63,514 nucleotides of DNA, filler included, from Pseudovirgaria hyperparasitica (GCA_010093815.1; 6 parts of 6 records of this genome joined end to end with filler, not necessarily neighbours in it), one strand, 5' to 3'. Counted from the whole stretch's first letter, positions 872-33,330 are shown. Notes: generated from the letters alone by a model not told the origin. Numbers and translations: made by a program.

Positions 872-1109
872 TGTTAGGACGGGAACTATAACGGACCTAT
901 ATAGACTATTCTAATCTATGTAGCCACGTAGTGGCCAGAGCTAGGTTGAGTTAGCTAAGTTAAGCGAGGTTACTATATAAGTAGACCGTATAAACCGATT
1001 CCTACTCGTTAGGAATTAACCTTATATAAGAGTAAGATTACTCTATAAATACATTCCTATGTCTCTCTATAAACTATTAGACTACTATCCCACGTCTTTA
1101 CTCTTTATA
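872..1109 (+). repeat. 5' LTR
   Basis: TGTTAGGACGGGAA...CTCTTTATA. Direct repeat of 8677-8914; the differences I saw are C/T and G/A transitions. Confidence 0.95.
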
Positions 1110-1129
1110 TTTTAATTCCTCTCTATATA

Positions 1130-4100: not shown

Positions 4101-6400
4101 CCCATTGCTAGTATACTTCGACCCGACCAAACCTATCCGCGTTAAAACTAACGCGTTAGGATTTATAATCTTAGACATTCTCTCCTAGCCTAGACTAACT
4201 AAGTCTAAAAAGGTCTAATGGTATCTAGTTACGTTCTTCTTACGTAAAATGGTCGATATTAAGACTAGATATACTATCTATAACCAAGAGCTACTAGTAA
4301 TAGTAGAGTCGTTTAAATAGTAGTAATATTATCTTAAAGGTACCATGTATAACGTCGAGTTACTAACTAATTACTATAACTTAAAGGGGTTTATAAGCAT
4401 GACGGTTTTAAACCGTTAATAGGTCTAATAGGCTAAGTAGCTTACGAACTTTTACTTTATAATCTACTATCGACCTAGAAGTATAAACCTAGCTAATAGA
4501 ATGTTAAGAAGACCTAACTATAAAGAAGGCGCCTAGGATTATAGTGGCCATAGGGTCCTAGAGTAGCTATAGGCCCAACTCTTAAGGACGAGGTTGGATT
4601 TTAAGTTATTAGGCGATTAGCGAGATGCTAACGTCGATGCTAGTAATCGAATCTCTAAGACTAAAGCCGGTAACCAAAGACGCGGTACTAAAGTCCCTAG
4701 TAGGCCGTTTATTAGCGCTGTCGGGAAGGGCGATAATGCCCAGCGTAAATATCTAATTAACCTCGCCTAGTTAATCGTGGATCTATAGAAGATAGACCCG
4801 ATAGTTTTAAAGTTACGTAAAATGTAGTAAGATAGGTTATTACGGACTAAAGTAGACTATAAGTAGACCTTCGTGGACGGCTTACTTTACTACGATAGAA
4901 AGTACTATATGCCGACGGGTAACGCGCGATTTAACGTAGTTAGCCGATACTATAACGCTAACCTAGTAGGACACTTTAGGTATGTACGTACCCTAAGCTT
5001 AATTCGTTAGTACTATTTTTAGGAAGATATACCTAAGTACGTCGAAGAATAGATAGCTACTTATCCGATTTATTAAAGAACGAAGGCCCCTAGGCATAAG
5101 CCATATAGGAATTTACAGCCTCTTTTAGCCCCCCTCTTTATATAGGAAGACGTTACTATGGACTTTATAGTTAACTTATCTCTAAGCGAGATGCTTAGAA
5201 TAAGTTATAATTCTATTCTTATTATCGTGGATAGACTTATAAAGATGTCTAGGTACATCCCGGTATAGAAGATAATTACATCTAAAGAACTAGCGTAGGT
5301 GTTCTAGAACGAGATTATCAAGGTCCATGGTATACTAAAAAGGATCGTTATGGACCGAGGAAGTACCTTCACATCTAAATTCTAGACGTTATTCTATGAA
5401 ATGGCAAGTATAAATAGAAATATATCTATAGCATTTCATCCTTAGACGGATGGCTAGATAGAGCGATAGAACTAGACGCTTGAGGCCTACCTACGCGCAT
5501 TCTACAATTTCGAGTAGAACGACTAGGCCTCTCTACTAAGTATAGTAGAGTTCGTATATAATAATAGTCGTCATAGTATAATAGATATTATACCTTTCTA
5601 GGCGAACCTCGGACGCAGTCTAAGGATAGGTTTTAAGCCTTAGACGGTCTAATTTAATCGAATAATAGACGTGAACGTCCACGCTTAGGAATTAGCGATT
5701 AAAATCTTCGAAACCGTACGTAACTATCGCGCTATAATCTAATAAGTAAACGACTTATATACGAAGTACTATAATAGGTTAGCTAAGGATTAGACGTACG
5801 AGGAGGGCGATAAGGTCCTTCTTAACGTCCGTAATATACGAACGTCGCGAGTAAATAAGAAGCTCGATTATAAAATAGCTAGTCCCTTCCGAATTAAACG
5901 TCGTATCGGTATAAGAGCCTACGAGCTCGACTTAGGAAGCGACATAAGAATCTATAACGTGTTCTACGTCTTACTACTTAAAAGATTTCGACCTAACGTG
6001 TATGGCCGCACGAACGTGTAGTTATACTCTATTATACTCTAAGATAGACTAGACGTGTTCGAAGTGGACCATATTATCGAACATAGGATCGATAAAGACG
6101 GTATTTAGAAATATAGAATCCGTTAGAAGGACTATACTAAGGACAAGGATACCTAGGAACTAGCGGTATATATCTTAAGTTCTATAATGGCTGCGTATAA
6201 GTAAAAGATATAGAATAGCGTATTATTAATGTAAGTATAGCGACGTTATAGTCGTCGTAAAAAGAAGAAGGATGCCGTAGAGAACGAAGTGCTAAACCAG
6301 GAAATCTAGACGCGCACTAGGAAAACTCTATATAGTAGCCCTATAATTCAAGCGTTACACGGTTACTAGACGCGAAGAAAGCGTAAACAACCATTTTAGG
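1130..6400 (+). pseudogene. gypsy gag-pol (Zn knuckle, protease, RT, RNase H, integrase, chromodomain)
   Basis: Knuckle at ~2465-2510. RT motifs [36 protein letters not shown] (3450-3680). Integrase DVTMDFIV (~5150) and AFHP*TDG*IER (~5430-5470). Chromodomain FEVDHIIEH...KYRIR*KDY...DT*E (~6058-6165). Boundaries approximate. Confidence 0.92.
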
Positions 6401-6799
6401 AACGCGACGTAACATACTATAATAGAATAACATAGAAGAGTCTAGAATAGACTAACATGGACCATTATACACGAGAAAAACATAGGACTAAGAACCTAAA
6501 AAAAGGTACCCCACTATAGAATTAAACTCTTAACACGAAATATAAAAGGTTAGAGTACCCGAACTAATAACCACTAGGCCACTAGTTCGGGTGCTCTAAT
6601 GGAATTCATAGAGATAAACTAATTTATATGCGGTGCCCACACTTAGGTGACTTAAGGAAAATTAGAATATAGAAACCGATAGTTATAAGCTAAGCGAGCG
6701 CACACATAATATCGTTAAGTTAAGAATTAAATTACTAGAAACTAGCCGACGGGTATCTAAACGGTCTAAAAAGGACTAAAATAGATAAAAGCCAGGTAA

Positions 6800-8400
6800 A
6801 TAGAGCCGGCGCGCACTACCTATAGTAGATCTAGAACACATAGAGCCAGGCATAGAGCTAACACATAGAGCTAGAACCATAGAGCTACTCCTCCATCTTA
6901 TTATCCGTCCTAATCTCTAGTATAGTCCTCTCTAACCGTACGATATAGCGGCGGAGGACGACGACCTTAGCCTCTAGAGTAATAACCCGATCCGTTAGAG
7001 CCTAGAGAGAAGAGTCTTAAGCGCTAGAGCGTAGCGACTAGGTCTAAAGTTAGCTAATATAATCTAGAATAATCTAGAAGGGAATATATACCCTCTTACG
7101 AGGCGACTTAGAGGGAGAAATAGTAGACCTCTTACGAGATTCGTTAGTAGCGCGAGACGGACGGGGGGGGATAGAGCGAATCCTCTCTACGGCCTCTATA
7201 GCTAGGATAGACTCCCTAGAATAGGTAGCCTAGGCGCTAGGGATCTCGCGGCGGCTAGAAAAATCAATAGGTGTTAAAAACAATTAACGTACTTATAACT
7301 TATACTTTAATAACCTCTAGGAAGAGCTTATAGCGCTCCCTAAACTCCCTCTATATAGTAGGTAGGCGGCTATAAGGACCCCTAAGGGTCTTACGGACGC
7401 GAAGGTCGTTATATATATCTTATATACGCATAGGAACCTAAGAATGTATTAGCGCGGACTACTTTAGATTATACTAGATTAAGATAGCCTATTATACTTA
7501 TCTATAGATAAGTCTTACTAGTCACGGTATAGCGGCGGTAGTGGGTAGGTAGAGTAAAGATAGGGCGTATAGGCCCGTCGCGGTTAGTAGAGTAGTAGCT
7601 AATGCTAGAGTTAGAGCGAAAGAGATATTTAGAGCCGGCCGTATAGCCCTTAATATACTCATAGTATATTAAACCGTAGTTCGCCGTTTTTCTATGGCGT
7701 AAACCGCGACCACGTTTAGTATCCTCGGCGACCTAGGCCTTATTATTAGTGGGCTAGGGTTTAGAGTAAATATTAAGGTCCTAAAAGAACCTAGAGCGAC
7801 TGAATCGGTCCATGTTAGACCGGAAGGAAGAGCGGTAAGGCGGCGGCGTAGGTAAGCGCGAGGGCTCGCGATTATCGTCTATAACGAGATCTTCTTTATC
7901 CTCTAGAGGAGGTAGAGTAGACGGCGTACGCTTTAGAGCGAGAGGAGAATCTACGACCACTTTATCTATAAGTTTAGTACTAGAATTACCTAGATTAGAG
8001 CGACTAGTGGCCACATTAGTAGCAGAGGTAGTAGTAGTAGTAGCCCTAGCTACTCTCTTCTCCGACTTAGAGCGCGCCTTCGTGCCACCGCGATAGATAG
8101 GCTTCTTAGCCGGCGTGGCCGGGGAGGAGGCGATGCCTTTAGAGCGAGTCTTATGAGAGGAGGAGATAGGCTTAGAGATAGGACTAGTATTAGATATCTA
8201 TATATACACGTTAGCTAGAGATCTAAGGAAGGAATATTCGTCTACCCTTAACGGCGATTAACGAAGCTAAATTAGTAACTATAACAACGCGAATAGGTTA
8301 TATAGGACCGGTTCTAATAAGAATAGACTACTATAGACCCTTCTAAACCTAAACTAGGGAAGATAGTATATGAATTAACGACTTACCTTAAGAGCGAGGT
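6800..8400 (-). pseudogene. Extra antisense, apparently spliced gene between pol and the 3' LTR
   Basis: Long minus-strand frames (SSHKTRSKGIASSPATPAKKP..., ORF 7781-8014, coiled-coil-like ALTDRVITLEAKVVVLRRYIVRLERTI at ~6920-7000). GTAAGT donor near 8386 and GCTAAC...TAG acceptor near 8200. Confidence 0.5.
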
Positions 8401-8676
8401 GGATATACTAGAGAATAAAATCAAAGGCGAGCGAAGCTAAATATATACTCGACCAAAGTGGCGATTATATATTCTAGGTAGTAGCCACGAAGTAAGGGAT
8501 AAGCGCGTGTATAAACTAATAAAAGTGAACTAGAATCTCGAGTTTACCTATATTAAGGATGGTTATAACGTTATAGGAACTTAGTTACGGATGTATAGGT
8601 ACACGATAGATTATAGAGACTTAGGATTATATATACTTAAGTGCTTTAGGGCGAAGCATAAAAAGAAGAAGGATAT

Positions 8677-8914
8677 TATTAGGACGGGAACCATAATAGA
8701 CCTATATAGACTATTCTAATCTATGTAGCCACGTAGTAGCCAGAGCTGGGTTAAGTTAGCTGAGTTAAGCGAGGTTACTATATAAGTGGACCGTATAAAC
8801 CGATTCCTACTCGTTAGGAATCAACCTCGTATAAGAGTAAGATTACTCTATAAATACATTCCTATGTCTCTCTATGAACTGTTAGACTACTATCCTACGT
8901 CTTCACTCTTTATA
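8677..8914 (+). repeat. 3' LTR
   Basis: TATTAGGACGGGAA...CTCTTTATA, same length as the 5' LTR. Confidence 0.95.
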
Positions 8915-8919
8915 GTAAC

Positions 8920-11900
8920 GTAGATAAGCCATTACCGTTATATATAGAGGTTAGGGTATATAGCTAGATAGTAGCGTATTATACCTCTCCGGCCGCACGC
9001 CTTATACCATAGAGAGGTATCGGGAACGCCTCTCTTATAGATATAGTATAGGAGTCCTATAGCGCCCGTTCGGGCTTAGATAAGTATAGATACTTAGGCT
9101 TTCGTTAGCCCTTTATATATCTATTTACTTAGTTCCTTCTATAGCCCTTAAATCCACTCTAGGTACCTATTCTACTAGGAGGTCTAGTGGGCACGGAGTG
9201 CCTCTTTCTACTTATCTTAAGTCTACGACCGTATGTTTTTCACGAGTTCTTAAAGGCTCTACCGGTCTAGGAGAGCGTCCGGGTTATCTTAGACTTCTTA
9301 TACTACTTAGCTAGAGACGGCTTCTATTAAGCACCTATACCGTATTCGATTCTAGCCTATATATAGGAGTGCGCGGTAATATATACTAATTCATATACGT
9401 AGCGCGGCGAAAGTATATTCTACGTTTCCTATACGTTCCTATACTTATTATTTAGTAAAGTATACTACCCTCTATGTCTAGTAGAAGTTATATATACTTA
9501 TGACGTCTATCTCGCGTTATAGTAGTACCGTGTTAGTAGCTTTATATACGCCTAATATAAGATAGAGTATGCGGTTCTATATGGATTCGAGCTTCATTCG
9601 CCTAGTCTATATAAGGGCTATATACTAGCACTCGTGTCCGTACGTAAAGGCGGGTCGTACTATAGATATATATAGCTAGCGTGCCTTATCCCGGGCGGTT
9701 CTCTATATAGAGACTATAATCCGTCGTATAGCGGCTTCTATCTAGAGGGCCCTAGAGACGGCGTATACCACTTATAGTCTCTATTTAAGCTTACTATCTA
9801 GTATAACTCCGAGCGCGCGCATGCTTTATACTAGTAGTTTATTAAATGCGTCGATTCGGGGGCGTCGTTCGCCTTCCCTAGTTATCTATTTCCCTTAACG
9901 ATTAATAAAGTGCATGAGCTGGTATTTCTCCGGGGCGAACTTTACTCTATAGTATTTTACCTACTAGAGGCACCTCTTATGGTTCTATTCTAGTCGTCTA
10001 CACGTTCGGTTAGTATTATTATTAATAGCTAGAAGGTATATGTTATCGGCGTATCCAACTACCTCTATATACTTTATTCCTTAAAGAAGGTCTACCGTAA
10101 AGAAGAGGAATAGGATTAGAGAGATAGTACTCCCTTATAGGATACCGCATGCCGTCTCTTTATATTCGCTCTAGTACCTAGGGATATATATCTAAGTTAT
10201 TCTTTCTATAAGGAATAACTATATAAAGCGTATAATCTATTCTAGTATTCGTCTTATCTAGAGGTTATAAATAAGTCTTATATAGTTTACCTTATTAAAC
10301 GCTCCGGCTATATTAAGAGAGAGGAGCGATACTATCCGTCCCTATTTCTATACGGCCTAGACGACTTTAATAATATATTAGATAGCTATTATTAGAGAGC
10401 TATCTACCTTTACCTTCTAGTTCGGAGGGAGAAGATTATATTTCTATACCGTAGTACTTATCTTCTTTACTATTATAGCCTCTAGTATCTTACCTAGATA
10501 GAAGAGAAGGGCGATTAGTCTCTATCCCTTTAGGGAGTTAGGGCTCTTTTCTAGTTTCGGGAGTATAATAGTATAGGTAACTTAGAAGCTCTAGGGGTGG
10601 TACCCCTACGTGACGTATACTTAGAATATATAAGTAATAAGTAGTAGGGTCGCTTTTATAGTACTTTTTAGGCATCGATTTAGAATTCCATCTAGTCTAG
10701 ATACTTTATCATTTAGGAGTATCTTAATAATATTAAGTATATCCTCCTCCGTAACTTCTTCGGGGATATCTACCATATATAGATATTTAGCGCCGTGAAC
10801 GTCTAATAGATCTACTAGTTCCGGGAGAGGGAACATGGCCTCCCGTAGAGCCTTAGTTTTCTTAAGGCTCATAGAGTATATTCTCCCCTAATATATTAGA
10901 GGAGGTATAAGTAGCGGGGGTGTCGGAGTGTCTACGCCCTTAGCCTATTTCGCTATACGCTATAGCTCTATTACGTATCGTGTCTATTAACTAGTAATTA
11001 TACGCTACTATTTACGCCTTTTATTATAGAGGACTTTATCGCGTTATTATATTACTTCCTTCTATTCTTTCTACGACTCGGGTATTCTCGTACGGTATAT
11101 ACGTGTATATAGCCTTTAGGCGTCTTATCTACTCTCCCGTACTCGAGGAATCCCCTTTACTTCCGGGGGCCGGTATATTTAGTATAGTACGTGTTTATTT
11201 CTTATATTCTAGTATATTTATAGGAGTGTCTATACGGCCTAGTCTATGGCTAGGTCGTTAGATATATTAACTATAGAGGGATCTAGGATCGCCGATTCTA
11301 GGTCCTTTAGGTACTTTTCCTAGTTAGTGTCCTTCTATATCTATCGTCCCTATTATTCATTCGGGGTATATATATTTATTACGGTTTCCATGCATTTATG
11401 GTCGGAATCCGTCTATACCTAGCCTAGGCGGTAGTATTAGATCCGGTAACTAATATACTCTATAGCGAAGGTAAGGTTAAGCGTAGACCCGTCTTCATTC
11501 TATTTATATTTTTTCTATATAACTTATTCTATAGATATAAGTAGGTATAGAAAGTCGTAGTAGCGGGTGCGTAGTTCCCTTACTCTAAGTTCTTCCCTAA
11601 CTACGGCTAGGCCTCCCTACTATCGGTAGTAGAGGTTAAAGTCTCCTAGGAGGATGTATTACCCTAGTTCCATAGTACCCTCGAGCATCTCGTCTAGTAT
11701 AAGTATACGTTATTAGTTATATATGTTATATATATATAGGGGGCCTATATCTATTTATAGGTATAGTGTTATCCTAAGGTTATCGCGCTCGGTATATAAC
11801 CATAATAAGAGTAGTATTAACCTATAAATATAGAAGAGGACTCGTCTTTCTAGTCCTAGAGGGTGTATAGTATAGTATCCGGGGTGTATGGTTAGTTTAC

Positions 11901-12040
11901 TCGTCTAGTAGTATTTATAGGGTTCCTAGATGGCGAGTATTATGGCCCCAGTCTCTTCGAGGAGCGTCGCCTAGTTCTCTCTTTTATATTATATATTTAC
12001 CTATATAATTTAGAGTATATTCTAGTCCCTTATTAGGTAC
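8920..12040 (-). pseudogene. LINE ORF2 (AP endonuclease + reverse transcriptase); C-terminal remainder at ~700-866
   Basis: Minus-strand motifs: APE ILAI*EP (~11925-11945), LLGDFNL (~11630-11655), SDH (~11400); RT GIL*GSTISLILFLF (GIPQGS-like, ~10100-10145) and GYADNI (YADD-like, ~10040-10058). Confidence 0.85.
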
Positions 12041-12049
12041 TAGGGAGTA

Positions 12050-13481
12050 TATATATCTATATACTTATTCCTTAGAGGCGCGACTATCCTCGCGCGGTAG
12101 CGGCTTTAACTATATCTTTTAGTCGTTCTATCGTCTTCGGGATAGTCTACTATCCTACCTAACTATCTTTCGGAGGGGAGGTTAGGCGTATTATAAAGGA
12201 AGGGCTCGTAGTAGGTATTATATTCTATAACTATCTCACGCCTCTTACTTTTATCGTGTAAATATATTCTATAACCTATTTACGTTTTATACACGTTAAC
12301 GACTATAACGGGTGTTTCCCGTCGTAGTTTAAATACTATACTATATCTCTATTTCTTAGTCCGTCTCCTCGCGGTTTATAAGGGCACTCCTAGATAGCGT
12401 GGTCCCTACGGTACTATCCGCACTTAGTCTTCTATAAGTACCTTTATATAGTATATCTATACCCTTAATAGTTAAAGTACTATATTATTACCTATACTCT
12501 ATTCTATAGCTCGGCTATAAGGAGCTCTCCTTCTATTAGGAATCCCTCCTATATAATATATTATACGAGGGCGGGGTCTCGGAGCTCTATAATTATAGTA
12601 GAGTGTTTTTTCGCCGTCGTCTTAATCGCCTATAGGTTCTTCTACCACGCTTTTACGATCTTAATCCCTAGGTATTTTCGCGCGTTAGATTATTCTATAC
12701 GCGTAATATCCTCTGCTCCGATAGCCTATCCCCGTATAGGTACTATATATACTATAATTAGGTATATAGCTACTCTAATAGACGTACTAGGGAAGATACT
12801 ACCTATCGCGTTCGGATCTCGCGAGATGTTTTACTATGTAGTATTCGTTATAGTAGTAAGTACTACCCTATCTAGTATAACTTTAGTAGCCACGACGCTC
12901 GACTATATTCCTTTCTATTTATTAATCTTATTTATAATTTCCTTTAGGGATGCCTATTAGACCTACGCTAGCGTGTCCTTATCCTAGATTACGATACGTA
13001 TACTATATACTCTATCTATAGTCCTAGTAGTCCTTAGTGCGGTAGCTCCGGGTATTACTATAATCTAAGCCCCCGTGTTAGGGCGCTTACCTTAGGATAG
13101 CTCTTCCTAGATTCTCCGTAGGCTGGCTTCTATTTAGTTAAGCCTACTACTAGGTTCCTCTTATGGCGACTTCCTTTCTTCCTCTATAATTTCTCTTAGG
13201 TTCTAGATAAGGTCCTAGAATATATAAAGAAGGGTCTTCTTTCCCTCCTTGGCGTCCCTCTCTATATATATTACCTAGTATTTAATTTTATCTAGGAGGG
13301 TCTCCCCTCTCGGGGTCCCCTCGGTCTAGGTTATCTATAGCGCTTCGCACCCTTAGTTAGTTCCTATATTTTAGATAGGTATCTAGCTATCTATATTAAT
13401 ATCGCTATATGGCCGTTTCTACCGTACTAGTAGGGGTATATCCGGCGTATACCGGGGTATTATAATACCTAAGGCCGCCAT
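12050..13481 (-). pseudogene. LINE ORF1 (gag-like, CCHC knuckles)
   Basis: ATG at 13481. RIP-degraded C-x2-C-x4-H-x4-C-type knuckles at ~12380-12485. Many RIP-derived stops. 3' boundary approximate. Confidence 0.7.
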
Positions 13482-13750
13482 GGTTATTAGTTAAGGGTAG
13501 CCCTTAACTAATAAAAGGGGGTCGGCATGTCGGCGTTTATTAGATATAGTCTATACTCGTGTTATTAAAGAGTCTTCGAGCGTATATATATAGTATCTCT
13601 ATACGTTGGTATTATCGCGTATTATATACTATACGTACGTACGTGTGTCGGAGGTTATTATACTTAGTATACTCTATCGTTTAATGTATGTAAATCGCTG
13701 TTTTACCCCGAATTAACTAGTTTAGTCCGTTAGGGTATGAGAAGTTTTTT

Positions 13751-13809
13751 TTAAAGAATATTATAAGATCTTTAATAAAATGAATACTATTAAAACAGAC
13801 TCTTTAAGT
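13751..13809 (+). mobile_element. Continuation of the copia RNase H region after the LINE insertion
   Basis: Starts with the second copy of TTAAAGAATATTATAA and continues the copia frame (KEYYKIFNKMNTIKTDSLS) up to the gap. Confidence 0.7.
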
Positions 13810-13909
13810 NNNNNNNNNNNNNNNNNNNNNNNNNNNNNNNNNNNNNNNNNNNNTTAATTAATTAANNNNNNNNNNNNNNNNNNNNNNNNNNNNNNNNNNN
13901 NNNNNNNNN
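13810..13909. other. Artificial contig linker (N44-TTAATTAATTAA-N44); also at 27321-27420, 39945-40044, 49893-49992, 59713-59812
   Basis: Five identical 100-nt spacers with stops in all frames. Complete contigs are 13411, 12524, 9848 and 9720 bp (decreasing). Confidence 0.98.
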
Positions 13910-15428: not shown

Positions 15429-16587
15429 AGTTTAGGGGTATTCCGAGTATTGTATAGTGTGGAGACGAGGCTAATAAGTATACAGGCACGTGGATTCGAC
15501 GTATTTCACGACGTTGCGGCTGCTATGCACGATAATGTTCAAAATGCTCGTTTACTATGGAAAAACGGTGTGTCGCGCACAGGTGTGCACGCCAAGAGTC
15601 GCGCTGAAAAAGTTACAGACGGATCCTCGGTGGGTAGCCCCCTACACTCAACACCTAAAATCGGGCGCTAAGCAAGTTGAATATCGCCTTCGGCTATTCC
15701 ATAATCTGATTACAGTATCGGTCATCCTAGAAGACACGACTCCTTCTCAAACAATCTCTAGATTGAGCAGGCTGATGAACAAGACTCAAGGCACATCTCT
15801 CCCAAGTGTAAATGTGATTGGGCTTCGTTCTCCAACCAATGTAAGATCAACACCAGGTGCGTGGCTTCTAAGATGCAATAGCCGCCATGGGAAAGGCTAA
15901 AAGCCAAGGCACCTGCCATCTTACATCTCCAATGCTTCTCGTCACGCCTAGGACGAATGGTACAGCGCTGTCTGACAAGCGTCTGTTGGAACGACGCTTC
16001 GCTTAAGGCAGATGTACTTTTGCTTTTAGAATGAGCATGCTCTGACCGTGCCACATGCAACACAGCCAAGCGGCGCACTCTCTTGCTCTCTTGCCCAAAT
16101 TTAGTGCCTTTGCGTAACAATTGATAATACGTCGCTTGAAAGTTTGCCGATATCCATGTTTTGGAGACGGCTAATAGAGGGCATATCATCACTTCTTAGG
16201 CATAATTCAAGGTTCTAGCAGGCTACTAGAGTAGACTTGGGAAGCATCTCTCCCACGCATAGAAATGGCCGAATGGCTACTTTGCAGTCTTCTCCGCTCG
16301 TTCTGTAAACGACCCTGCGCTACGGCTGTGCCTTTCTCACTTCACGCGTGCGGCAATGGTGGTGTCGGTCGACCCGAGTCTGCATTAGTTGCTTAGGTAT
16401 CTAGAAAAATATTGTAGATCCGCCTTGCATGGCCAGCGCTTAATAGCGCGGCACAGCAGACATTAGGCTCGCTGATAGTTTGACCAATAGTGATACGAAC
16501 GACATCTAATCTCCTTCACTTCACGCTGCGCACTATCCGAGCGAGCCTGGTAATCGTGCCCCCCGTTCACCACATTCACGCCCGCTG

Positions 16588-16684
16588 TAGGGCAGTCTGT
16601 TAGTAGCAACTCCGCCTAAATCAAAATGCGCGACGCGTGTACACAGAATGAGGTTCTATAGAGTTAAGTTAAGGTTTAGTTTAG
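16588..16684 (+). repeat. Left TIR of the IS3EU-like element
   Basis: Reverse complement of 21239-21337 apart from a 2-nt indel (TGTTAG vs TGTTTTAG). Confidence 0.95.
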
Positions 16685-16900
16685 GGTTATCGTACGATAT
16701 ATAGCTATAGAAAGAGAGTGTAGTCATATTCGTATCTTGCCATCACCGGAATAACGTTTTTCCAGCTACCCACAGAATAATTTTCACCTCTCTTTAATCA
16801 TACAATCACCATAACCATACTCACAACTATAACCATAACCACCATAACCACAACAACAACCACAACAACAACCACAGTAATAGCAGTAGCATCAATAGCA

Positions 16901-17700
16901 ATGGCGTAATCGTTTCTACTATTCTCAAGAGCTCGTGTAAGTCGTACGAGCTATAGGTAGCATGCTAATAGAGTGTATAGATCCAATAGTAATAACAACA
17001 ACCAAGCCCTTGTCCTCTACCACCCTATCCCCCACCCCGACATCCCCGGCCAGGTGGTCGGACGATATGAAGAGCATGGAGGTAGGAGGTATATCTTCAG
17101 AGTTGGAGGGCAGGAGTTAGCACCCTGGTGTCATAATAAGCAGCAGTGGGCGGTCTTGGCCTTACCTAGTTAAGATATTGAGTATAATGGCCCTTCTGCC
17201 ATTCAATTCTACCAGATCTGGTCATACCGCCCCTCTACCATCAACTCCGTCCTCGTACAATCCTGTGGACGTAAAGAGGTTATGCCCTATACCCAGTGTA
17301 TAAGGGCAAGAGCCCCCGCGTTTCCAACATGTGTCCGGTTACCAGGCCATTTTAGGGGAGCATGTGGCTATTGTAAGAAGAAGGACTAGGTAGCCAGATG
17401 CTCTGCACGAGATCGTACGAGGGTGTTACACCAGGGTAGTGCTCCTACTACAGCTATTACTATATTACCACTACCTCCAGAGGAGGAGGAAGAAGATGAT
17501 AATGATAAGGGGGAGGATATAGAGATAGAGGAGGAGGAGGAGGAGGAGGAGGAGGATGAGGATGAGGAGGAGGAGGATGAGGATGAGGATGAGGAGGAGG
17601 GGGATGGGGTAAGTCAGTCTATGAGACTGCAGCTGAAGACTAGGTATGTGAATCGTACGACTGAAGTATATAGTATCTATACCAACTAGGTATAGGGTTT
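16901..17700 (+). pseudogene. DUF3716-like Cys-rich protein with acidic tail (transposon passenger)
   Basis: 17222-17420 reads SYRPSTINSVLVQSCG...PYTQC...AFPTCVRLPGHFRGACGYCKKKD*VARCS, followed by a long E/D tract. GT-AG introns at 16937-16980 and 17644-17689. Confidence 0.75.
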
Positions 17701-17885
17701 TGTCCATACCACCCGCCATATACTAAGCCTTTACGTGGCGGCTGGAATAAGTACCTCATGGGAAACCAATTAGTATTCAAGAGTAAGAGCTATGTCTACC
17801 CTATTATACGATATAATGACTACCTTCTACCTCTAGTTCTTAGCCCAGCTAGCCTAGCCTCAGCCTCACCCTCCTCAATACCCTA

Positions 17886-19213
17886 CTAAACAGATTCAAG
17901 TATTCTCTCTAAGAATGTCTTACTTCCTCGTACGAGCTCTATAGCTAAGGGTAGATTCTTATTACCGTCACTATCTTCTACTAGGTTAACCTCTCTCATA
18001 ATCTTTAGAGTCGTACGAAGTGTTAGAGTTAGCTTTAGCTCCTGCTTAACCTTAGACTCCTGCTTAACCTTAGACTCCTGCTTAACCTTAGACTCCTGCT
18101 TGACCTCGGATTTAACGAATGGATTCCCAATGGCCTGCTTACTTCTCTTTTTCTTTGGTCTCGTACGACTAATATATGGAGATGGCGATTCCTTAGGACT
18201 AGTCTTATTCATCCGCTTCAGCCTGGTGGGTATTGTCTTAACCTCAGCCTCAAATTCCTCCTAGTGCTTGATCTCTTAATAGAGAATGTTAATCTCGTAC
18301 GATTTATTAGTCTTCTAGTTCCCTACTATGACCTTAAAGTCTTCTCCTTCAAGACAGTCCATGATTATATCATATAACGTAAGGTCAACTGCTATAAAGG
18401 GCCCTTTTTGGATAACAGATGTATAGATATGGATAACATGATTATCCTCTGGCTTATCCTAAAGCCAGGGGGAAAGCCATGTTCTCGTACGAGCTTCAAC
18501 CTCCCTCATAAAGATCTATGCTAATTAGTGATGGGAGTCTCCAATTTATTAGTTTGAGACCTTAACTAGGTATTTCTAGGCTATATATATATTAGTAGAA
18601 GTCTCTTCTATAGGAATATCTCGTACGAACCTCTTCCTTACCGTGTACTCTCATTCTCCTCACTTCCATCAGGTAATACCCGGGTTATGTTTTTCCATAT
18701 CACAATGTTCAACCTAAGCTTCTTTTCCCCAACTCCTGGCTTTCTATGTTTAACTATTAATCGGTTACGGGTTCTCTCAATCTCTTGTGCCATCTTATTC
18801 ATAGCCATTACCCTTGGTTTATATAGGTTCTCTTCTTCGCTCGTACGATCTCGAGCTAGTGTTATAGCCTATTGTACACGTGCGATATTTTGTTCTATAT
18901 ATCGATGAGCACGTTCTCTAGTAGTAGTATTAATAGTATACTAGCCTTTTGTATGCCATTGGCTAGAGGAGCCTTATTAAATAGAGAGGGCTGTCGTACA
19001 ATCTCGGTCTTGTTTTGTCTTCTGTGACTCTGGGGAGTCATTAATAAGTGTAATTGGTTCTACTACTAAGCTACCTCGTGGGTCAAACTCTATAAGAAAT
19101 GTATTATATGCGTTATACTTGGTGTTGCCTTGTTCGTATAATTCATTATGTCGTTTCCCACTCTTTAACTTAGAGCAGACCTTAAAGAAGGCAGCTGTAA
19201 TCTTTAGTGCCAT
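17886..19213 (-). pseudogene. Second orphan ORF of the IS3EU-like element (C-terminal VKQESK repeats)
   Basis: ORF pieces 18977-19213 and 17886-18212 are co-oriented and separated by RIP-type stops. 18-bp tandem repeat at ~18040-18105. Confidence 0.55.
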
Positions 19214-19329
19214 ATCGTACGATTAAAGAGGAGATATAAAAAGAAGATAGAAGTAGCTACTACTAAAAGTTATTAAGATGAGTAGGCTCATCTACTATAT
19301 ACATAGTATCTTCATAGACATTCTGGTCT

Positions 19330-21101
19330 ACCTAGTAAGGTTGTACGATACCATACTTACCATCTGGTTTAATAATACCTTCACCTGCAAATTCCACCTC
19401 CTTATTACCATCTCTACCTATACCTAAATCCTGATTATCCTGTTATACTATAGGGCCATGCCTATCTTAGTTAGTATAAGGTCCCTAGAGAAGTATTAGT
19501 ATCACACCGCTCCTTTACTCGTACGATATATACCTGCTACTACCTAGCTCTAACTAGAGACTTTAAGAGAGAAAGCTGGGGTTCTAGACTAGAATTAAAG
19601 TGCTTATGAGTTAGCTGCCTTAGCTTAAGGTATATTAATCGATAAGGATTCAGCCGATCGTATAATGTGTCTAGTGGGCCCTTTAGATTAAAATTAAGTC
19701 GATCTAGCTGTTGCTGGCACCATATAAGAGTATTAGGTGGTAGGTATGCATTAAGATTATAGATACCTGCCTCTTCAGCCTCTGACTTGACTCGTACGAA
19801 CTCAGTTGCGTTAAATTAGACTGCACCATTCATGATCTCAGGTCCTGGGTGGAAGTAGTTCATCCATGGCTTCCCATAGACCGTGTTAGGGCGATTGGCC
19901 TGCTTCCGAATATAGTGCTTATTCTATGTTCGTACGAATAGATCGAGCTCTCTTCGAAGAACTGGTGTGTAGATAGCAGAGAGTGTAACTATATCAGGGA
20001 TAAACTTTAGAGTCAGTAGCCGCTCCCCCTATAGTCTTGAAAAGTATCTCTATATAAAGTTAGCCTATACTTTTATGATCGTACGATACATACCCTCCAT
20101 CTCTAGAGTAAGCCTTTTGAGAGCTGATTCCACCAGGACTTAATTCTTTGATTAGCCGTGCTTATTCCCCATATCCAGCACTCAGAAAATAGAATATCTG
20201 GCTGAGATAGCTGCCTTAGCTTCCACTATGTGGTAGCCATTAATGTAGTCTTACCGCCATGGTCAGATCGTACGAGGAGAGGCTGATACTAAAAGCTTTT
20301 AAGAACCTAAAGAAACATCCGCTCACAGCTTATAGCCGTAGTAGAAGAGATCCCAATATAGCTCCATATAATAAAGCGTGAGTAGGCATTAATATAGGTA
20401 TAGATCTTAAAGCCGTACGAGCTTAGCTTATGATAGCCATCTATACTCTAATAGAAGTTTGGCCTAGGGATAATGAACTCTCCTCGTATCCGCTAGAAAT
20501 TAGTCTTTCTACGTGCTATCCTAGAAGGATTAACGATTTTCATAGCTCTATAGAGCCGATCTCTATATAAGTTAGAATCATACGATCTATATAGATGAAT
20601 ATAGAAGACTTACCTCCTAATTAGCATCTCTTACTAGCGGAAATGTGTATAGAGAAGGCCCCGACCATAGCCCTTAACCTGTCTAGTTTTCATATGCTCT
20701 TGTAAGAGCTCTTATATATATAGCTCTGCCTGCTCTTATGCCTTAATTCCACGAATCCGATGGTATAGCCCTATTTCTCTTCGAAGTCTACTAATTATAT
20801 ACTGGGTTATTATACGACCTTCTCTTTCTAGAACTACTATAAGCTCTGTATTAGATAGATCTCCCTTGAATATTAATTATTTAATTCGGCGGCCAAGAGT
20901 CTCTCGTACGATTGAACCACTATCCATTTGAGTTTAAACTCCCCATTACTTTAGTCTCTTTTCTAAGGTTCTTATGGCTATACGGATAGAGAACTTAGTC
21001 TATAACCAGCTATATATTTCTTTAACTGGGACACGCGCTACCCTTTTAGCTATAATCTCGGCTTAAAGGTGATCGATGTTCGTACGAGGTCGGCTAGATA
21101 T
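19330..21101 (-). pseudogene. IS3EU/IS481-type DDE transposase with N-terminal HTH (Clr5-like) region
   Basis: Read on the mirrored copy (24276 onward): PNFY*SIDGYHKLSSYGFKIYTYINAYSRFIIW, LLVRSDHGGKT, WGISTANQRIKSWWNQL. Two introns (mirror 24764-24814 and 25284-25327). 3' end approximate. Confidence 0.88.
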
Positions 21102-21238
21102 TTTAGAGATAGAGAACTAGGGACGTTTAGAGGAGTAGAAGGTAGAAGAAGAGAAGTATAGTATAAGTAGAAGAATTTATTTACGCGCCTATCGTACGAT
21201 AGATTAATAATACTAGAGACTATTATAGCTAGACTACT

Positions 21239-21337
21239 CTAAACTAAACCTTAACTTAACTCTATAGAACCTCATTCTGTGTACACGCGTCGCGCATTTT
21301 GATTTAGGCGGAGTTGCTACTAAAACAGACTGCCCTA
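21239..21337 (-). repeat. Right TIR of the IS3EU-like element
   Basis: Ends in CTGCCCTA, followed by the TSD CCGCTG. Confidence 0.95.
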
Positions 21338-21555
21338 CCGCTGTGCCACTTCCAGCTCTGCTACGCCCCTCGCAAAGTCCATTTCCTACAGGCTGTGATT
21401 GGACTGTTCGACAAGTATTGCATGCGATTGCTGTACGCCTGTGCATCATTCTCCACCAGTCGCTCCTGCAAGACCTCGCGCATCACCCGCCCCACAACCC
21501 TAGTGCTGCTGGAGTTTCGCGCTCACGTGCAATAATTCAGGCCAATGCACGGGCC

Positions 21556-23693: not shown

Positions 23694-23886
23694 CTTTCGC
23701 TATCCTTGACGTGTTGTGTTTAACTGAAAGATTTATCAGCCAAAGAATAAGATGAGAGCTCACGAATGCAAGATCTGTCCTACTCTTATAGATCATGGTT
23801 GATGCATCGTTGTGCAGTCCATACACAATGATAAGGGCGGTGCTCTGTTGCAATGCGGCGTAGGCGCACATCTGGCGTTTCCTGCA

Positions 23887-26800
23887 GCGGGTGATGCGCG
23901 AGGTCTTGCAGGAGCGACTGGTGGAGAATGATGCACAGGCGTACAGCAATCGCATGCAATACTTGTCGAACAGTCCAATCACAGCCTGTAGGAAATGGAC
24001 TTTGCGAGGGGCGTAGCAGAGCTGGAAGTGGCACAGCGGTAGGGCAGTCTGTTTTAGTAGCAACTCCGCCTAAATCAAAATGCGCGACGCGTGTACACAG
24101 AATGAGGTTCTATAGAGTTAAGTTAAGGTTTAGTTTAGAGTAGTCTAGCTATAATAGTCTCTAGTATTATTAATCTATCGTACGATAGGCGCGTAAATAA
24201 ATTCTTCTACTTATACTATACTTCTCTTCTTCTACCTTCTACTCCTCTAAACGTCCCTAGTTCTCTATCTCTAAAATATCTAGCCGACCTCGTACGAACA
24301 TCGATCACCTTTAAGCCGAGATTATAGCTAAAAGGGTAGCGCGTGTCCCAGTTAAAGAAATATATAGCTGGTTATAGACTAAGTTCTCTATCCGTATAGC
24401 CATAAGAACCTTAGAAAAGAGACTAAAGTAATGGGGAGTTTAAACTCAAATGGATAGTGGTTCAATCGTACGAGAGACTCTTGGCCGCCGAATTAAATAA
24501 TTAATATTCAAGGGAGATCTATCTAATACAGAGCTTATAGTAGTTCTAGAAAGAGAAGGTCGTATAATAACCCAGTATATAATTAGTAGACTTCGAAGAG
24601 AAATAGGGCTATACCATCGGATTCGTGGAATTAAGGCATAAGAGCAGGCAGAGCTATATATATAAGAGCTCTTACAAGAGCATATGAAAACTAGACAGGT
24701 TAAGGGCTATGGTCGGGGCCTTCTCTATACACATTTCCGCTAGTAAGAGATGCTAATTAGGAGGTAAGTCTTCTATATTCATCTATATAGATCGTATGAT
24801 TCTAACTTATATAGAGATCGGCTCTATAGAGCTATGAAAATCGTTAATCCTTCTAGGATAGCACGTAGAAAGACTAATTTCTAGCGGATACGAGGAGAGT
24901 TCATTATCCCTAGGCCAAACTTCTATTAGAGTATAGATGGCTATCATAAGCTAAGCTCGTACGGCTTTAAGATCTATACCTATATTAATGCCTACTCACG
25001 CTTTATTATATGGAGCTATATTGGGATCTCTTCTACTACGGCTATAAGCTGTGAGCGGATGTTTCTTTAGGTTCTTAAAAGCTTTTAGTATCAGCCTCTC
25101 CTCGTACGATCTGACCATGGCGGTAAGACTACATTAATGGCTACCACATAGTGGAAGCTAAGGCAGCTATCTCAGCCAGATATTCTATTTTCTGAGTGCT
25201 GGATATGGGGAATAAGCACGGCTAATCAAAGAATTAAGTCCTGGTGGAATCAGCTCTCAAAAGGCTTACTCTAGAGATGGAGGGTATGTATCGTACGATC
25301 ATAAAAGTATAGGCTAACTTTATATAGAGATACTTTTCAAGACTATAGGGGGAGCGGCTACTGACTCTAAAGTTTATCCCTGATATAGTTACACTCTCTG
25401 CTATCTACACACCAGTTCTTCGAAGAGAGCTCGATCTATTCGTACGAACATAGAATAAGCACTATATTCGGAAGCAGGCCAATCGCCCTAACACGGTCTA
25501 TGGGAAGCCATGGATGAACTACTTCCACCCAGGACCTGAGATCATGAATGGTGCAGTCTAATTTAACGCAACTGAGTTCGTACGAGTCAAGTCAGAGGCT
25601 GAAGAGGCAGGTATCTATAATCTTAATGCATACCTACCACCTAATACTCTTATATGGTGCCAGCAACAGCTAGATCGACTTAATTTTAATCTAAAGGGCC
25701 CACTAGACACATTATACGATCGGCTGAATCCTTATCGATTAATATACCTTAAGCTAAGGCAGCTAACTCATAAGCACTTTAATTCTAGTCTAGAACCCCA
25801 GCTTTCTCTCTTAAAGTCTCTAGTTAGAGCTAGGTAGTAGCAGGTATATATCGTACGAGTAAAGGAGCGGTGTGATACTAATACTTCTCTAGGGACCTTA
25901 TACTAACTAAGATAGGCATGGCCCTATAGTATAACAGGATAATCAGGATTTAGGTATAGGTAGAGATGGTAATAAGGAGGTGGAATTTGCAGGTGAAGGT
26001 ATTATTAAACCAGATGGTAAGTATGGTATCGTACAACCTTACTAGGTAGACCAGAATGTCTATGAAGATACTATGTATATAGTAGATGAGCCTACTCATC
26101 TTAATAACTTTTAGTAGTAGCTACTTCTATCTTCTTTTTATATCTCCTCTTTAATCGTACGATATGGCACTAAAGATTACAGCTGCCTTCTTTAAGGTCT
26201 GCTCTAAGTTAAAGAGTGGGAAACGACATAATGAATTATACGAACAAGGCAACACCAAGTATAACGCATATAATACATTTCTTATAGAGTTTGACCCACG
26301 AGGTAGCTTAGTAGTAGAACCAATTACACTTATTAATGACTCCCCAGAGTCACAGAAGACAAAACAAGACCGAGATTGTACGACAGCCCTCTCTATTTAA
26401 TAAGGCTCCTCTAGCCAATGGCATACAAAAGGCTAGTATACTATTAATACTACTACTAGAGAACGTGCTCATCGATATATAGAACAAAATATCGCACGTG
26501 TACAATAGGCTATAACACTAGCTCGAGATCGTACGAGCGAAGAAGAGAACCTATATAAACCAAGGGTAATGGCTATGAATAAGATGGCACAAGAGATTGA
26601 GAGAACCCGTAACCGATTAATAGTTAAACATAGAAAGCCAGGAGTTGGGGAAAAGAAGCTTAGGTTGAACATTGTGATATGGAAAAACATAACCCGGGTA
26701 TTACCTGATGGAAGTGAGGAGAATGAGAGTACACGGTAAGGAAGAGGTTCGTACGAGATATTCCTATAGAAGAGACTTCTACTAATATATATATAGCCTA

Positions 26801-27320
26801 GAAATACCTAGTTAAGGTCTCAAACTAATAAATTGGAGACTCCCATCACTAATTAGCATAGATCTTTATGAGGGAGGTTGAAGCTCGTACGAGAACATGG
26901 CTTTCCCCCTGGCTTTAGGATAAGCCAGAGGATAATCATGTTATCCATATCTATACATCTGTTATCCAAAAAGGGCCCTTTATAGCAGTTGACCTTACGT
27001 TATATGATATAATCATGGACTGTCTTGAAGGAGAAGACTTTAAGGTCATAGTAGGGAACTAGAAGACTAATAAATCGTACGAGATTAACATTCTCTATTA
27101 AGAGATCAAGCACTAGGAGGAATTTGAGGCTGAGGTTAAGACAATACCCACCAGGCTGAAGCGGATGAATAAGACTAGTCCTAAGGAATCGCCATCTCCA
27201 TATATTAGTCGTACGAGACCAAAGAAAAAGAGAAGTAAGCAGGCCATTGGGAATCCATTCGTTAAATCCGAGGTCAAGCAGGAGTCTAAGGTTAAGCAGG
27301 AGTCTAAGGTTAAGCAGGAG
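23887..27320 (+). repeat. Inverted duplicate of 18057-21490 (second IS3EU arm from 24040 plus 153 bp of flank), truncated by contig end
   Basis: Mirrored coordinates sum to 45377 at all landmarks checked, and mirrored ORF translations are identical. Confidence 0.97.
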
Positions 27321-27420
27321 NNNNNNNNNNNNNNNNNNNNNNNNNNNNNNNNNNNNNNNNNNNNTTAATTAATTAANNNNNNNNNNNNNNNNNNNNNNNN
27401 NNNNNNNNNNNNNNNNNNNN

Positions 27421-33100: not shown

Positions 33101-33330
33101 AAAGTAGTAAGTTCATCCGCTGCCTCGTTCTTCCTATTAATACGTAATCTCTAGGATACGTGTATCTTATACGTCTCCTCTACGTCCTCTTCCTCAACCC
33201 CTATAACCTTGTCCTAACCGCTATTTATAGGATTCATAGGAAGAGATGAAGAAAGAGGAGTAGGAGGAGTAGGAGTAGAAGGAGTAGGAGGAGGAGGAGG
33301 AGGAGGAGGAGGTTTAGTCGACGCGTCTAT
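30183..33330 (-). pseudogene. RIP-mutated accessory gene of the Tc1-like element (homolog of 13910-15428), interrupted at ~31735-32608
   Basis: N-terminal poly-Pro at 33240-33315. LWCSEATCINYQG*Y*KI...HYKV...PWAND at ~30930-31050, then a coiled coil and an FSSP C-terminus. Convergent with the transposase remnant. Confidence 0.6.

Follow-up and report, generated by a model that had tools for sequence, protein, structure and literature searches.

Why should a palindrome of eight base pairs recur from one end of a transposon to the other, through coding sequences and introns alike? The question is raised by a stretch of DNA of 63,514 nucleotides from Pseudovirgaria hyperparasitica (the window, in which parts of 6 records of the assembly GCA_010093815.1 are joined with filler). 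One of the proteins it encodes has 100% identity to a protein of this fungus. In the initial annotation, 20 exact copies of TCGTACGA were placed between positions 16690 and 21199 and read as an array of binding sites for a protein encoded by the element. The even spacing of this array, referred to below as the lattice, and its occurrence together with a DUF3716 gene in unrelated kinds of mobile element suggest an undescribed self-marking system. No description of such a lattice was found in the literature searched.

A RIP-mutated transposon and its lattice

The coordinates of the element and its parts are collected in Table 1. The element has the TA..TA termini that are given as a criterion for IS3EU in the available portion of PMC10045372, together with a 6-bp target-site duplication, terminal inverted repeats (TIRs), and an rve-type DDD/E transposase, the class of the transposase being assigned by profile and homology in a copy that is broken by RIP. 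The ungapped core of the TIRs (16600-16687 vs 21236-21323) is 99% identical over 88 nt, and the match reaches ~100 nt if one indel is allowed. In a contig of run X2, 16581 is connected to 21338 at a junction that resembles an empty site and has 7 shared bases, one side of the junction being only 23 nt long and the contig coming from one run.

Table 1. Features of the transposon and its surroundings, in coordinates of the window
Feature	Position	Strand	Basis or remark
Left target-site duplication, CCGCTG	16582..16587		same hexamer at 21338-21343; 7th shared base possible
Left TIR, starts TAGGG	16588..16687	+	BLAST match to 21236-21341, 96% over 106 bp
Whole IS3EU-type DNA transposon, RIP-mutated, non-functional	16588..21337		termini, 6-bp duplication, TIRs
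Lattice	16690..21199		20 exact TCGTACGA and about 8 decayed or variant CGTACG-type sites
DUF3716 pseudogene	16961..17613	+	Pfam PF12511, E 9.2e-6; own HMM, 3.3e-16
Probable intron	17641..17692	+	GT..AG skip of 52 in a contig of run X4 only ('cut +3'); contains site 17653
Probable intron	17783..17836	+	GT..AG skip of 54 in contigs of X3 and X4; contains decayed site 17804
Transposase pseudogene	18300..21173 (3' limit approximate)	-	Pfam PF24764 (rva_4), E 1.4e-8 and 4.2e-4 in two frames
Right TIR, ends CCCTA	21236..21337	-	BLAST, ungapped comparison
Right target-site duplication, CCGCTG	21338..21343		matches 16582-16587
Inverted duplicate of 18057-21490, 100% identical	23887..27320	-	BLAST; right part of the element and 150 bp of flank, ends at contig joint

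Both genes of the element are broken by stops. The DUF3716 pseudogene consists of a conserved N-terminal block, a six-cysteine domain (17174-17386), and an E/D-rich tail (~17480-17610). Its match to PF12511 scores 25.9 bits, above the Pfam gathering cut-off of 22; Y stands in place of the first cysteine, and the frame is interrupted by a stop at 17387-17389. The transposase pseudogene has an rve/integrase-type DDE core at ~19780-20564 and an N-terminal part at 20637-21173. When compared by tblastx with intact metagenome copies, it was found to be 50% identical over 162 aa to L055, which contains an intact rva_4 ORF, and 39-44% identical to L100, L112, and L094. The RIP indices TpA/ApT and (CpA+TpG)/(ApC+GpT) were determined to be 1.38 and 0.78 in the element vs 0.85 and 1.18 in genic DNA, respectively, and the differences between the element and a second copy are mostly C/T and G/A. 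The element is a RIP-mutated repeat, and because it is a relic killed by RIP, the lattice in the window is a fossil.

All 20 of the exact sites named in the initial annotation are present, and no other 8-mer is as frequent in the element as TCGTACGA. In the whole window it occurs 36 times, an excess over chance that is borne out by 100 dinucleotide-preserving shuffles of the window, in which the mean count was 0.79 and the maximum 5, with 0/100 reaching the observed count. The sites were observed in contigs of two samples. A further 14 sites at 24178-27216 add nothing independent because they are found in the 100.000% identical inverted copy of the element's right part. The junction past 21490, as it appears in contigs from the two samples, corresponds exactly to 23857-23886 in reverse complement.

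There are 2 exact sites (845 and 29706) that lie in neither the element nor its duplicate. The first lattice site is 3 bp inside of the left TIR, the last is 36 bp short of the right TIR, and there are 0 exact sites in the same-contig flanks (13910-16587 and 21338-23886), so the sites do halt at the element boundary, as had been claimed. The other contigs joined in the window served as within-genome controls. Genic DNA contains 1 exact site in 36 kb, which is the chance level, and the heavily RIP-mutated DNA at 1-13800 (a Gypsy element and another RT-bearing repeat) contains 1 in 13.8 kb. The motif is thus not equally common in other RIP-mutated repeats; an equal frequency there would have spoken against the annotation. 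The counts of RIP-type variants (≤2 changes) are 9 for the 4.76-kb element, 3 for the 13.8 kb of RIP-mutated DNA, and 7 for the 36 kb of genic DNA. Within the P. hyperparasitica contigs of the window, the tiling is specific to the element.

The 9 variant sites that had been listed as filling gaps in the array are likewise all present, with two qualifications. The site at 20413 (CCGTACGA) corresponds to a core in an intact relative that is likewise flanked by C, and by this comparison it is not a decayed site. The site at 17253 (TCGTACAA) may never have been exact, since its translation is L-V-Q where the 'LIQ' block of DUF3716 has its invariant Q. In the diverged second copy from the same organism, 20810 reads as an exact TCGTACGA (T>C and A>G) and 20904, intact in the window, is decayed, from which at least some of the variants are judged to be decayed ancestral sites.

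The spacing of the 29 sites has a mean of 161 bp, a standard deviation of 52, a CV of 0.33, a minimum of 81, and a maximum of 311, and 0/20,000 random placements were as even. Neither 10.5-bp (10-11 bp, helical) nor 3-bp (codon) phasing was found among the sites of the window. The spacing is even and not strictly periodic. Sites had been reported in all four predicted introns, and this stands for the two that could be checked as GT..AG skips, each of which contains a site. The skips come from runs X3 and X4 of a second sample, which are of unrecorded kind, and are presumably of RNA origin.

The palindrome in other fungal mobile elements

A scan of metagenomes with the motif returned at least 67 non-tandem loci that are tiled by the same palindrome and contain genes of the IS3EU, hAT, Copia (RVT_2), LINE (EN+RT), Gypsy (integrase), and pogo-type (DDE_1) kinds. 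All of these relatives were found through the motif itself, and within this set every family has the same CGTACG core; the expectation that the array is a speciality of a single family of IS3EU, or that palindromes differ from family to family, is not borne out. The typical spacing is 90-225 bp and varies by element; the suggested link to nucleosome spacing is tentative. In 17 of 23 elements the CV is lower than expected at random (P<0.05). The IS3EU-type element C55 (L055/L056) starts with TATGG, which resembles published IS3EU ends; a search for TIRs in 11 metagenome loci found none. In a search for full-length IS3EU homologues the only longer protein was P0325, which at the protein level has R-T or V-R in 5 of the columns that hold sites in C55. 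The tiled elements have no common transposition machinery, and the function of the lattice is therefore not in the chemistry of transposition. On these grounds the transpososome scaffold, which had been offered as one possible function, was rejected.

Intact, GC-normal relatives that have not undergone RIP contain the same sites at the same codons; the sites are older than RIP. The hAT transposases are only 36-52% identical to one another, and their sites are found at the same alignment columns and in the same frames (207, 258, 350, 402, 492, and 542). When sites of the window were mapped through tblastx HSPs, 5 of 7 fell exactly on a CGTACG of an intact IS3EU copy that is ~38-50% identical in protein. 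In 18 ORFs (7,837 codons), R-T is written CGT-ACG in 70/107 cases, V-R is written GTA-CGA in 49/61, and S-Y is written TCG-TAC in 24/42, where the codon usage of the same ORFs predicts 6-9%. Lineage-specific sites displace non-conserved residues (columns 103, 175, 292, 421, and 600).

The sites thus occupy all three reading frames, rare codon pairs are fixed, and the protein is sometimes altered; selection therefore acts on the DNA. This agrees with the earlier claim that the constraint is on DNA and not on protein, as does the presence of a site in both of the checked introns. To judge from the alignments, the lattice is ancient and is maintained by this selection at the DNA level. The flanks of 291 sites carry no information, and flank identity is at background. 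The unit is therefore the palindrome itself, and a longer inserted repeat was rejected.

DUF3716 as the candidate reader

By Pfam or our own HMM, DUF3716 is encoded in 8 independent DNA groups of tiled elements (the window, C55, L010, L081, the L050/L016/L029 cluster, L069, L032, and L051), and L064 gives a weak match in addition. In the six families with both ORFs in one stretch (the window, C55, L010, L081, L069, and L032), the DUF3716 gene is convergent with the main ORF. No clear DUF3716 gene was found by either profile within the recovered part of the tiled LINE, Gypsy, and pogo-type fragments; such elements may rely on a reader supplied in trans or on a host factor. Copia-borne DUF3716 is 55-60% identical to two hAT-borne copies, and the hAT-borne copies differ from one another by up to 33%, which suggests that the gene has been exchanged between superfamilies. 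No DUF3716 locus was found in the collections of viral and prokaryote contigs.

The protein has six invariant or near-invariant cysteines, spaced CX2C-X10-C-X10-CX2C-X8-C, and a tail that is often acidic. The loops between the cysteines are longer than those in the canonical Zn(2)-Cys(6) pattern. PF12511 was matched by 45/45 members of the alignment (A3) and no other Pfam family matched DUF3716; the profile of Zn_clus (PF00172) found 1/45, at E 1.6, and does not place the domain in that family. A structure model is confident over residues 50-160, and its eight best Foldseek matches are all HAP1 Zn2Cys6-DNA complexes, at values that are not significant (E 1.8 or worse). The family is large: at E ≤0.001, matches were obtained to 1,500 clusters defined at 50% identity. 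Among 204 DUF3716 proteins (68 earlier), the tripeptides that the motif would encode are enriched only 2-4-fold, a figure confounded by the conserved FVRG block, and this protein-level proxy for tiling was set aside for that reason.

Because a DUF3716 gene accompanies the putative sites in 8 independent families, the original reading, in which the array would be bound by a protein that the element encodes, is the best of those available. We propose that the TCGTACGA sites, in which the core CGTACG is invariant and T/A is preferred at the outer positions, would form a cis-acting docking lattice over the whole body of the element, with about one site per 90-225 bp, for a protein that would bind DNA sequence-specifically and probably as a dimer. 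The likeliest reader would be the small DUF3716 protein, with its N-terminal block, putative six-cysteine zinc domain, and commonly acidic tail. Combined with the reader gene, the lattice would make up a portable module by which several superfamilies of transposable elements in Pezizomycotina mark their own DNA, and the most likely effect would be that the element stays active in transcription or resists silencing. Whether the lattice indeed consists of docking sites for element-borne DUF3716 in a portable activation or anti-silencing module is, in our estimate, an even call.

The lattice might instead be read by a host transcription factor, such as a zinc-cluster regulator acting at the cyp51 promoter, in which case transposable elements would have converged on its sites for expression and DUF3716 would do something else. 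The same motif does occur in a host promoter, and expression there follows the number of copies, according to the available portions of PMC8252799 and PMC6637983, and the fragments that lack a clear DUF3716 gene in their recovered part would find an explanation. One unchanged core extends across many superfamilies and presumably many hosts, which fits a conserved host factor as well as it fits docking of DUF3716 and counts against the latter. A host factor leaves unexplained the convergent position of DUF3716 in 8 tiled families from three or more superfamilies, and an enhancer needs promoter-proximal sites rather than an even coverage of coding sequence that is paid for in rare codon pairs and residue changes. 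The chance-level count in genic DNA also speaks against it, and we regard this explanation as unlikely, though a serious contender. A purpose other than activation for the same reader, either DUF3716 or another element-linked protein, appears to us distinctly improbable: a coat against the RIP homology search, DNA methylation, or heterochromatin spreading, or a self-limiting repressor that controls copy number. Acidic tails could contact histones. The even coverage of the whole body, with its low CV in most of the elements analysed, suits a coat or boundary array better than a promoter element, and the sites are intact in L113 and L125, which are extremely AT-rich, RIP-like copies (GC 0.23-0.24). 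RIP prefers CpA and the cytosines of the motif are in CpG, so the survival of the sites may simply reflect this preference. Despite the lattice, RIP has heavily mutated the window copy and several of those from metagenomes, a failure of protection that weighs on docking of DUF3716 as well as on a coat, and the sole functional data on the motif, in the available text on P. fijiensis, point to activation.

Two further explanations carry little weight. The motif might work in RNA, where the self-complementary UCGUACGA could serve in transcript pairing, packaging, or processing, and retroelements, which have an RNA genome, carry it too. Sites are found, however, in the two introns that were checked in a gene of a DNA transposon, as well as in each of the convergent genes and in terminal regions that look untranscribed; the motif is a perfect DNA palindrome without flanking structure; and in P. 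fijiensis it acts from within a promoter, as described in the available parts of PMC6637983 and PMC8252799. We consider a role in RNA very improbable. Chance, an assembly artefact, or a mutational by-product such as creation of the motif by RIP can be regarded as refuted. The central TA could come from CA or TG via RIP, and part of the window count is the identical inverted duplicate at a contig end; set against this are the shuffles, the contigs of two samples, and the intact relatives with the same sites at the same codons. RIP was rejected as the creator of the motif since it degrades the sites.

Implications and known systems

If docking of DUF3716 is correct, mechanistically unrelated fungal transposable elements would share a portable system of reader plus lattice that runs through their coding sequences. 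Mobile DNA would then have a novel means of governing its own chromatin or expression, and a large orphan family would acquire a function. The same reading would also provide a testable candidate factor for the enhancer palindrome that is tied, in the available portion of PMC8252799, to fungicide insensitivity in P. fijiensis, a major pathogen of banana. More tentatively, DUF3716 and the CGTACG lattice may be a horizontally exchangeable self-marking cassette in many superfamilies of Pezizomycotina, in which one reader dimer per approximate nucleosome length would keep chromatin open or hidden from repeat-sensing defence, and the same reader family would be the missing factor at the TCGTACGA enhancer behind the overexpression of P. 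fijiensis cyp51; in this extended form we think the proposal possible but rather doubtful. Even without a mechanism, an 8-bp palindrome held at fixed codon positions in transposases of such low identity, and recurring in class I and class II elements, is a case of overlapping codes in eukaryotic mobile elements.

The subterminal repeats of Ac/Ds, En/Spm, and similar DNA transposons are multiple short motifs that are confined to the ends of the element, are bound by the transposase, and serve transposition. The lattice resembles them as a set of multiple short motifs inside a transposon, protein-binding in Ac/Ds and En/Spm and putatively so here, and differs in that it spans the whole element, occurs in retrotransposons also, and is not tied to one transposase family. 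REP9/Styx of Zymoseptoria tritici is a 7.9-kb IS3EU-related transposon of another Dothideomycete host (PMC8232023, PMC10853768). As far as the available texts describe it, Styx has an RVE/DDE transposase of the IS3EU type, TIRs, a 6-bp target duplication, and the DUF3716 accessory proteins REP9-2 and REP9-3; it has four genes, whereas the window element has two or three. An internal palindrome is not mentioned in the available texts of PMC8232023 and PMC10853768, where 'palindrom' has 0 occurrences.

The palindrome itself is already published as the core of an orphan enhancer in the cyp51 promoter of Pseudocercospora fijiensis, a different Dothideomycete from P. hyperparasitica (PMC6637983, PMC8252799). 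In the available portions of these papers, element 'A' has the palindromic core TCGTACGA, identical in all 8 bp to the lattice motif; its copy number (1-6) correlates with higher expression, extra copies being associated with overexpression. Its authors consider it most likely a transcriptional enhancer, with the factor unknown and a transposon origin possible, and the same portions propose no link to DUF3716. In its host gene, element 'A' forms a short tandem cluster that is promoter-proximal, whereas the lattice is on the scale of kilobases.

The VANC system of the Mutator-like VANDAL elements of Arabidopsis, with which the array had been compared from the start, is an apt analogy in its logic and not in the form of its motif. 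In both, a transposon accessory gene for a sequence-specific DNA-binding protein is accompanied by many copies of a short motif, although binding at the lattice is only predicted (PMC5735166). With VANC the density of motifs marks the element as self and the outcome is derepression; for the lattice, anti-silencing is proposed. As described in the available part of PMC5735166, VANC motifs are oriented, tandem, and non-coding, and they are family-specific and co-evolve with the protein. The lattice motif falls outside this definition: it is palindromic and non-tandem, is identical across class I and class II elements, runs evenly through non-coding DNA and through coding DNA in all frames, and keeps its positions over deep divergence.

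Motif Distribution and Element Anatomy

The window was found to contain 36 exact copies of TCGTACGA, the 8-letter palindrome with the core CGTACG, compared with a mean of 0.79 and a maximum of 5 in 100 dinucleotide-preserving shuffles. Twenty of these copies lie at 16690–21199 within the RIP-mutated IS3EU-type transposon, each exactly where the initial annotation had placed it, and TCGTACGA is the top-ranking 8-mer of this element in an 8-mer count. Another 14 copies, at 24178–27216, fall inside an inverted duplicate of the element and are hence not independent. Only two exact copies are found elsewhere in the whole window (845 and 29706), and the flanks of the element within its own contig have none.

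A second copy of the element from the same organism, about 91% identical over 19826–21116, was found in contigs of the sequencing runs X1–X4. Its differences are mostly transitions, and a 655–677-bp internal deletion begins directly after site 20079. The nine transition-only variants listed earlier were all located. The one at 20413 is a native C-flanked core, and an intact relative has such a core at the corresponding position; the one at 17253 may never have been exact because it codes for the invariant Q in the 'LIQ' block of DUF3716 (PF12511), a family of small six-cysteine proteins. Site 20810 is exact in the second copy, and site 20904 is lost there. The mean spacing of the 29 sites is 161 bp (CV 0.33), an evenness that was never reached in 20,000 random placements.

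There are nine RIP-type variants in the 4.76 kb of the element versus three in another part of the window, 13.8 kb long and heavily mutated by RIP, and therefore the motif is neither a RIP by-product nor a feature of every repeat in this genome. In this region, 1–13800, a Gypsy-type retrotransposon with heavy RIP mutation (RT, RNase H, integrase, and SH3_Tf2-1) occupies the plus strand at about 3.3–6 kb, and the minus strand has another repeat with an RT. Motif tiling is absent from both of these unrelated repeats.

The TIRs of the element are about 100 bp long, with 88 ungapped nt at 99%, and its ends and target duplication match the published IS3EU criteria of TA..TA ends and 6-bp duplications, as given in the available part of PMC10045372. 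The window's copy is dead; the first cysteine and one further codon of its DUF3716 gene are destroyed. The earlier placement of sites in all four predicted introns holds for the two GT..AG skips listed below, which we infer to be introns from runs of unrecorded kind. In one contig of run X2, and in this run only, 16581 is joined precisely to 21338 with 7 shared bases and a side of only 23 nt; this joint is like an empty site or excision product, but weakly supported. A GAG/GAT-rich run encoding the acidic tail (17512–17589) has an 81–88% match at 33239–33312 in a genic contig, probably a low-complexity acidic-tract coding repeat.

The inverted duplicate comprises the right part of the transposon and 150 bp of flank, lies 2.4 kb away, and ends at a contig joint. 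Its junction is present in contigs of two samples, and it may have arisen by a recent fold-back duplication or reflect the assembly. The six-frame-stop linkers at the joints identify the window as a chain of several separate contigs, and adjacency across joints is therefore meaningless. A protein encoded in the window matches one from Pseudovirgaria hyperparasitica at 100% identity, and thus the host is a Dothideomycete mycoparasite.

Features of the window and of tiled metagenome loci (L handles)
Feature	Location	Strand	Basis
IS3EU-type element	16588–21337		TIRs; TAGGG..CCCTA termini; CCGCTG duplication on both sides
rve-type transposase, stop-riddled	within element	−	PF24764, E 1.4e-8
DUF3716 gene, then E/D-rich tail	within element	+	PF12511, above gathering score
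Putative intron (GT..AG skip)	17641–17692	+	contigs of second sample; contains one site
Putative intron (GT..AG skip)	17783–17836	+	contigs of second sample; contains one site
Inverted duplicate	23887–27320		copy of 18057–21490; 3,434 bp, 100.000% identical
Linker blocks	13810–13909, 27321–27420, 39945–40044, 49893–49992, 59713–59812		N44-TTAATTAATTAA-N44
Intact IS3EU-type transposase	L055 474–1475	+	Clr5 domain (PF14420, E 3.4e-9) N-terminal to integrase core
hAT transposases	L010, L081, L016, L029, L005, L058		Pfam
Copia RT	L069		Pfam
LINE endonuclease + RT	L044		Pfam
Gypsy integrase	L054		Pfam
DDE_1 (pogo/Fot-type) transposase	L019		Pfam
OrsD-domain protein	L032 1–1458	−	PF12013, E 2.5e-27
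DUF3716 protein, very long D/E tail	L032 2510–2935	−	paired with the OrsD-domain protein

Tiled Relatives and Constraint on the DNA

Metagenome contigs were scanned for three motif copies 128–158 bp apart, and every relative was found through the motif itself. At least 126 loci were obtained; among the matches listed, 59 are simple tandem arrays and 67 are non-tandem with unrelated flanks, in at least 34 DNA groups. True tandem arrays of TCGTACGA (L121, L073, L020, L014, L004/L036, and others) have periods of 20, 34, 48, 67, 144, 145 bp and others, and some of these loci, at high GC, probably come from other organisms.

Many of the at least 67 non-tandem loci are tiled as in the window. In the 4.3-kb contig C55 (L055 plus L056), exact sites number 23 and CGTACG cores 39, and L010 and L050 have 16 exact sites apiece in 3.5 kb. 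Their DNA cannot be aligned with the window apart from one 225-bp match at 69%; protein identity to the window's element is 50% for the L055 integrase core and 39–44% for L100, L112, and L094. Since the reading frames of these copies are open and their GC content is normal, the lattice of evenly spread sites belongs to live elements, and the motif is not confined to RIP-mutated copies. A Pfam search of 114 ORFs from 35 loci showed that tiling extends beyond IS3EU to hAT, Copia, LINE, Gypsy, and DDE_1 loci and to a locus with an OrsD-domain protein.

The flanking positions of 291 sites carry no information. CGTACG is invariant and the outer T..A is preferred (293 exact, 90 altered on one side, and 25 on both). 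In hAT transposases that are 36–52% identical, sites recur in matching alignment columns with an unchanged frame. Conserved R-T, V-R, or S-Y residues are always encoded by motif codons while adjacent synonymous positions vary, and other sites are lineage-specific and substitute non-conserved residues. Across 18 ORFs, motif codons encode 70 of 107 R-T, 49 of 61 V-R, and 24 of 42 S-Y pairs, against 6–9% expected from the codon usage of these ORFs. The earlier proposal that the constraint acts on DNA rather than protein is borne out by these columns and codon pairs. Five of the seven mappable window sites fall exactly on C55 cores. In 17 of 23 elements the cores are spaced more regularly than random placement would give (P < 0.05), and the mean per element ranges from 87 to 225 bp; the search pattern accounts for part of the pooled mode at 125–155 bp, and the spacing has neither helical nor codon phasing.

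DUF3716 and the Proposed Function of the Lattice

A DUF3716 ORF was identified, with Pfam or our own HMM, in the window, C55, L010, L081, the L050/L016/L029 cluster, L069, L032, and L051, and a weak match was found in L064. In all six families that show both ORFs in one stretch (window, C55, L010, L081, L069, and L032), this ORF and the main gene are convergent. DUF3716 is a large family, matched by 1,500 clusters at 50% identity with E values up to 0.001; named members occur in Histoplasma, Helicocarpus, Villophora, Microdochium, and Trichoderma. The N-terminal block of these proteins is conserved, as are six cysteines spaced CX2C-X10-C-X10-CX2C-X8-C, and an acidic tail is often present; AlphaFold models residues 50–160 with confidence. 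The Copia-borne copy is 55–60% identical to two hAT-borne copies, whereas hAT-borne copies are down to 33% identical to each other, which suggests movement of the gene from one superfamily to another.

Elements of class I and of class II both carry the lattice, which excludes a role in transposition chemistry, and the transpososome scaffold proposed earlier is rejected. Even coverage of gene bodies, at a coding cost, takes the lattice beyond a promoter element. Its palindromic site indicates a reader that would be a dimeric binder of double-stranded DNA, and DUF3716, the one protein that the tiled families share, is the candidate for this role. The effect would be activation, according to the only functional data on the motif. 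On these grounds we favor, at about even confidence, a portable reader-plus-lattice module that may keep the element active or unsilenced.

It is possible, though rather unlikely, that many elements instead exploit a conserved host factor. In the cyp51 promoter of Pseudocercospora fijiensis, TCGTACGA has been described as the palindromic core of element 'A', whose copy number tracks overexpression and which the authors regard as most likely an enhancer, its factor being unknown (available parts of PMC6637983 and PMC8252799); the shared DUF3716 gene favors a reader carried by the elements. We regard as doubtful, more so than the host factor, that the same reader provides a shield against repeat-sensing defense or is a self-limiting repressor; DUF3716 would fit here equally, and the activation data favor the portable module. 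An RNA-level role of the motif appears very improbable beside a palindrome that points to double-stranded DNA, and artifact or chance is scarcely credible beside the shuffled controls.

Comparison with Known Systems

No description of a transposon-wide lattice was found among the best 20 of 317 papers matching the motif, or in searches on its core with transposons and on fungal transposon-encoded binding proteins. In the literature searched, DUF3716 turns up in just two papers, one of them on REP9/Styx of Zymoseptoria, which is also IS3EU-related and has accessory proteins with DUF3716; a palindrome is unmentioned in the available parts of the Styx descriptions (PMC8232023 and PMC10853768). 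The proposed module would work like VANC of the Arabidopsis VANDAL elements, as described in the available part of PMC5735166, but would be built quite differently.
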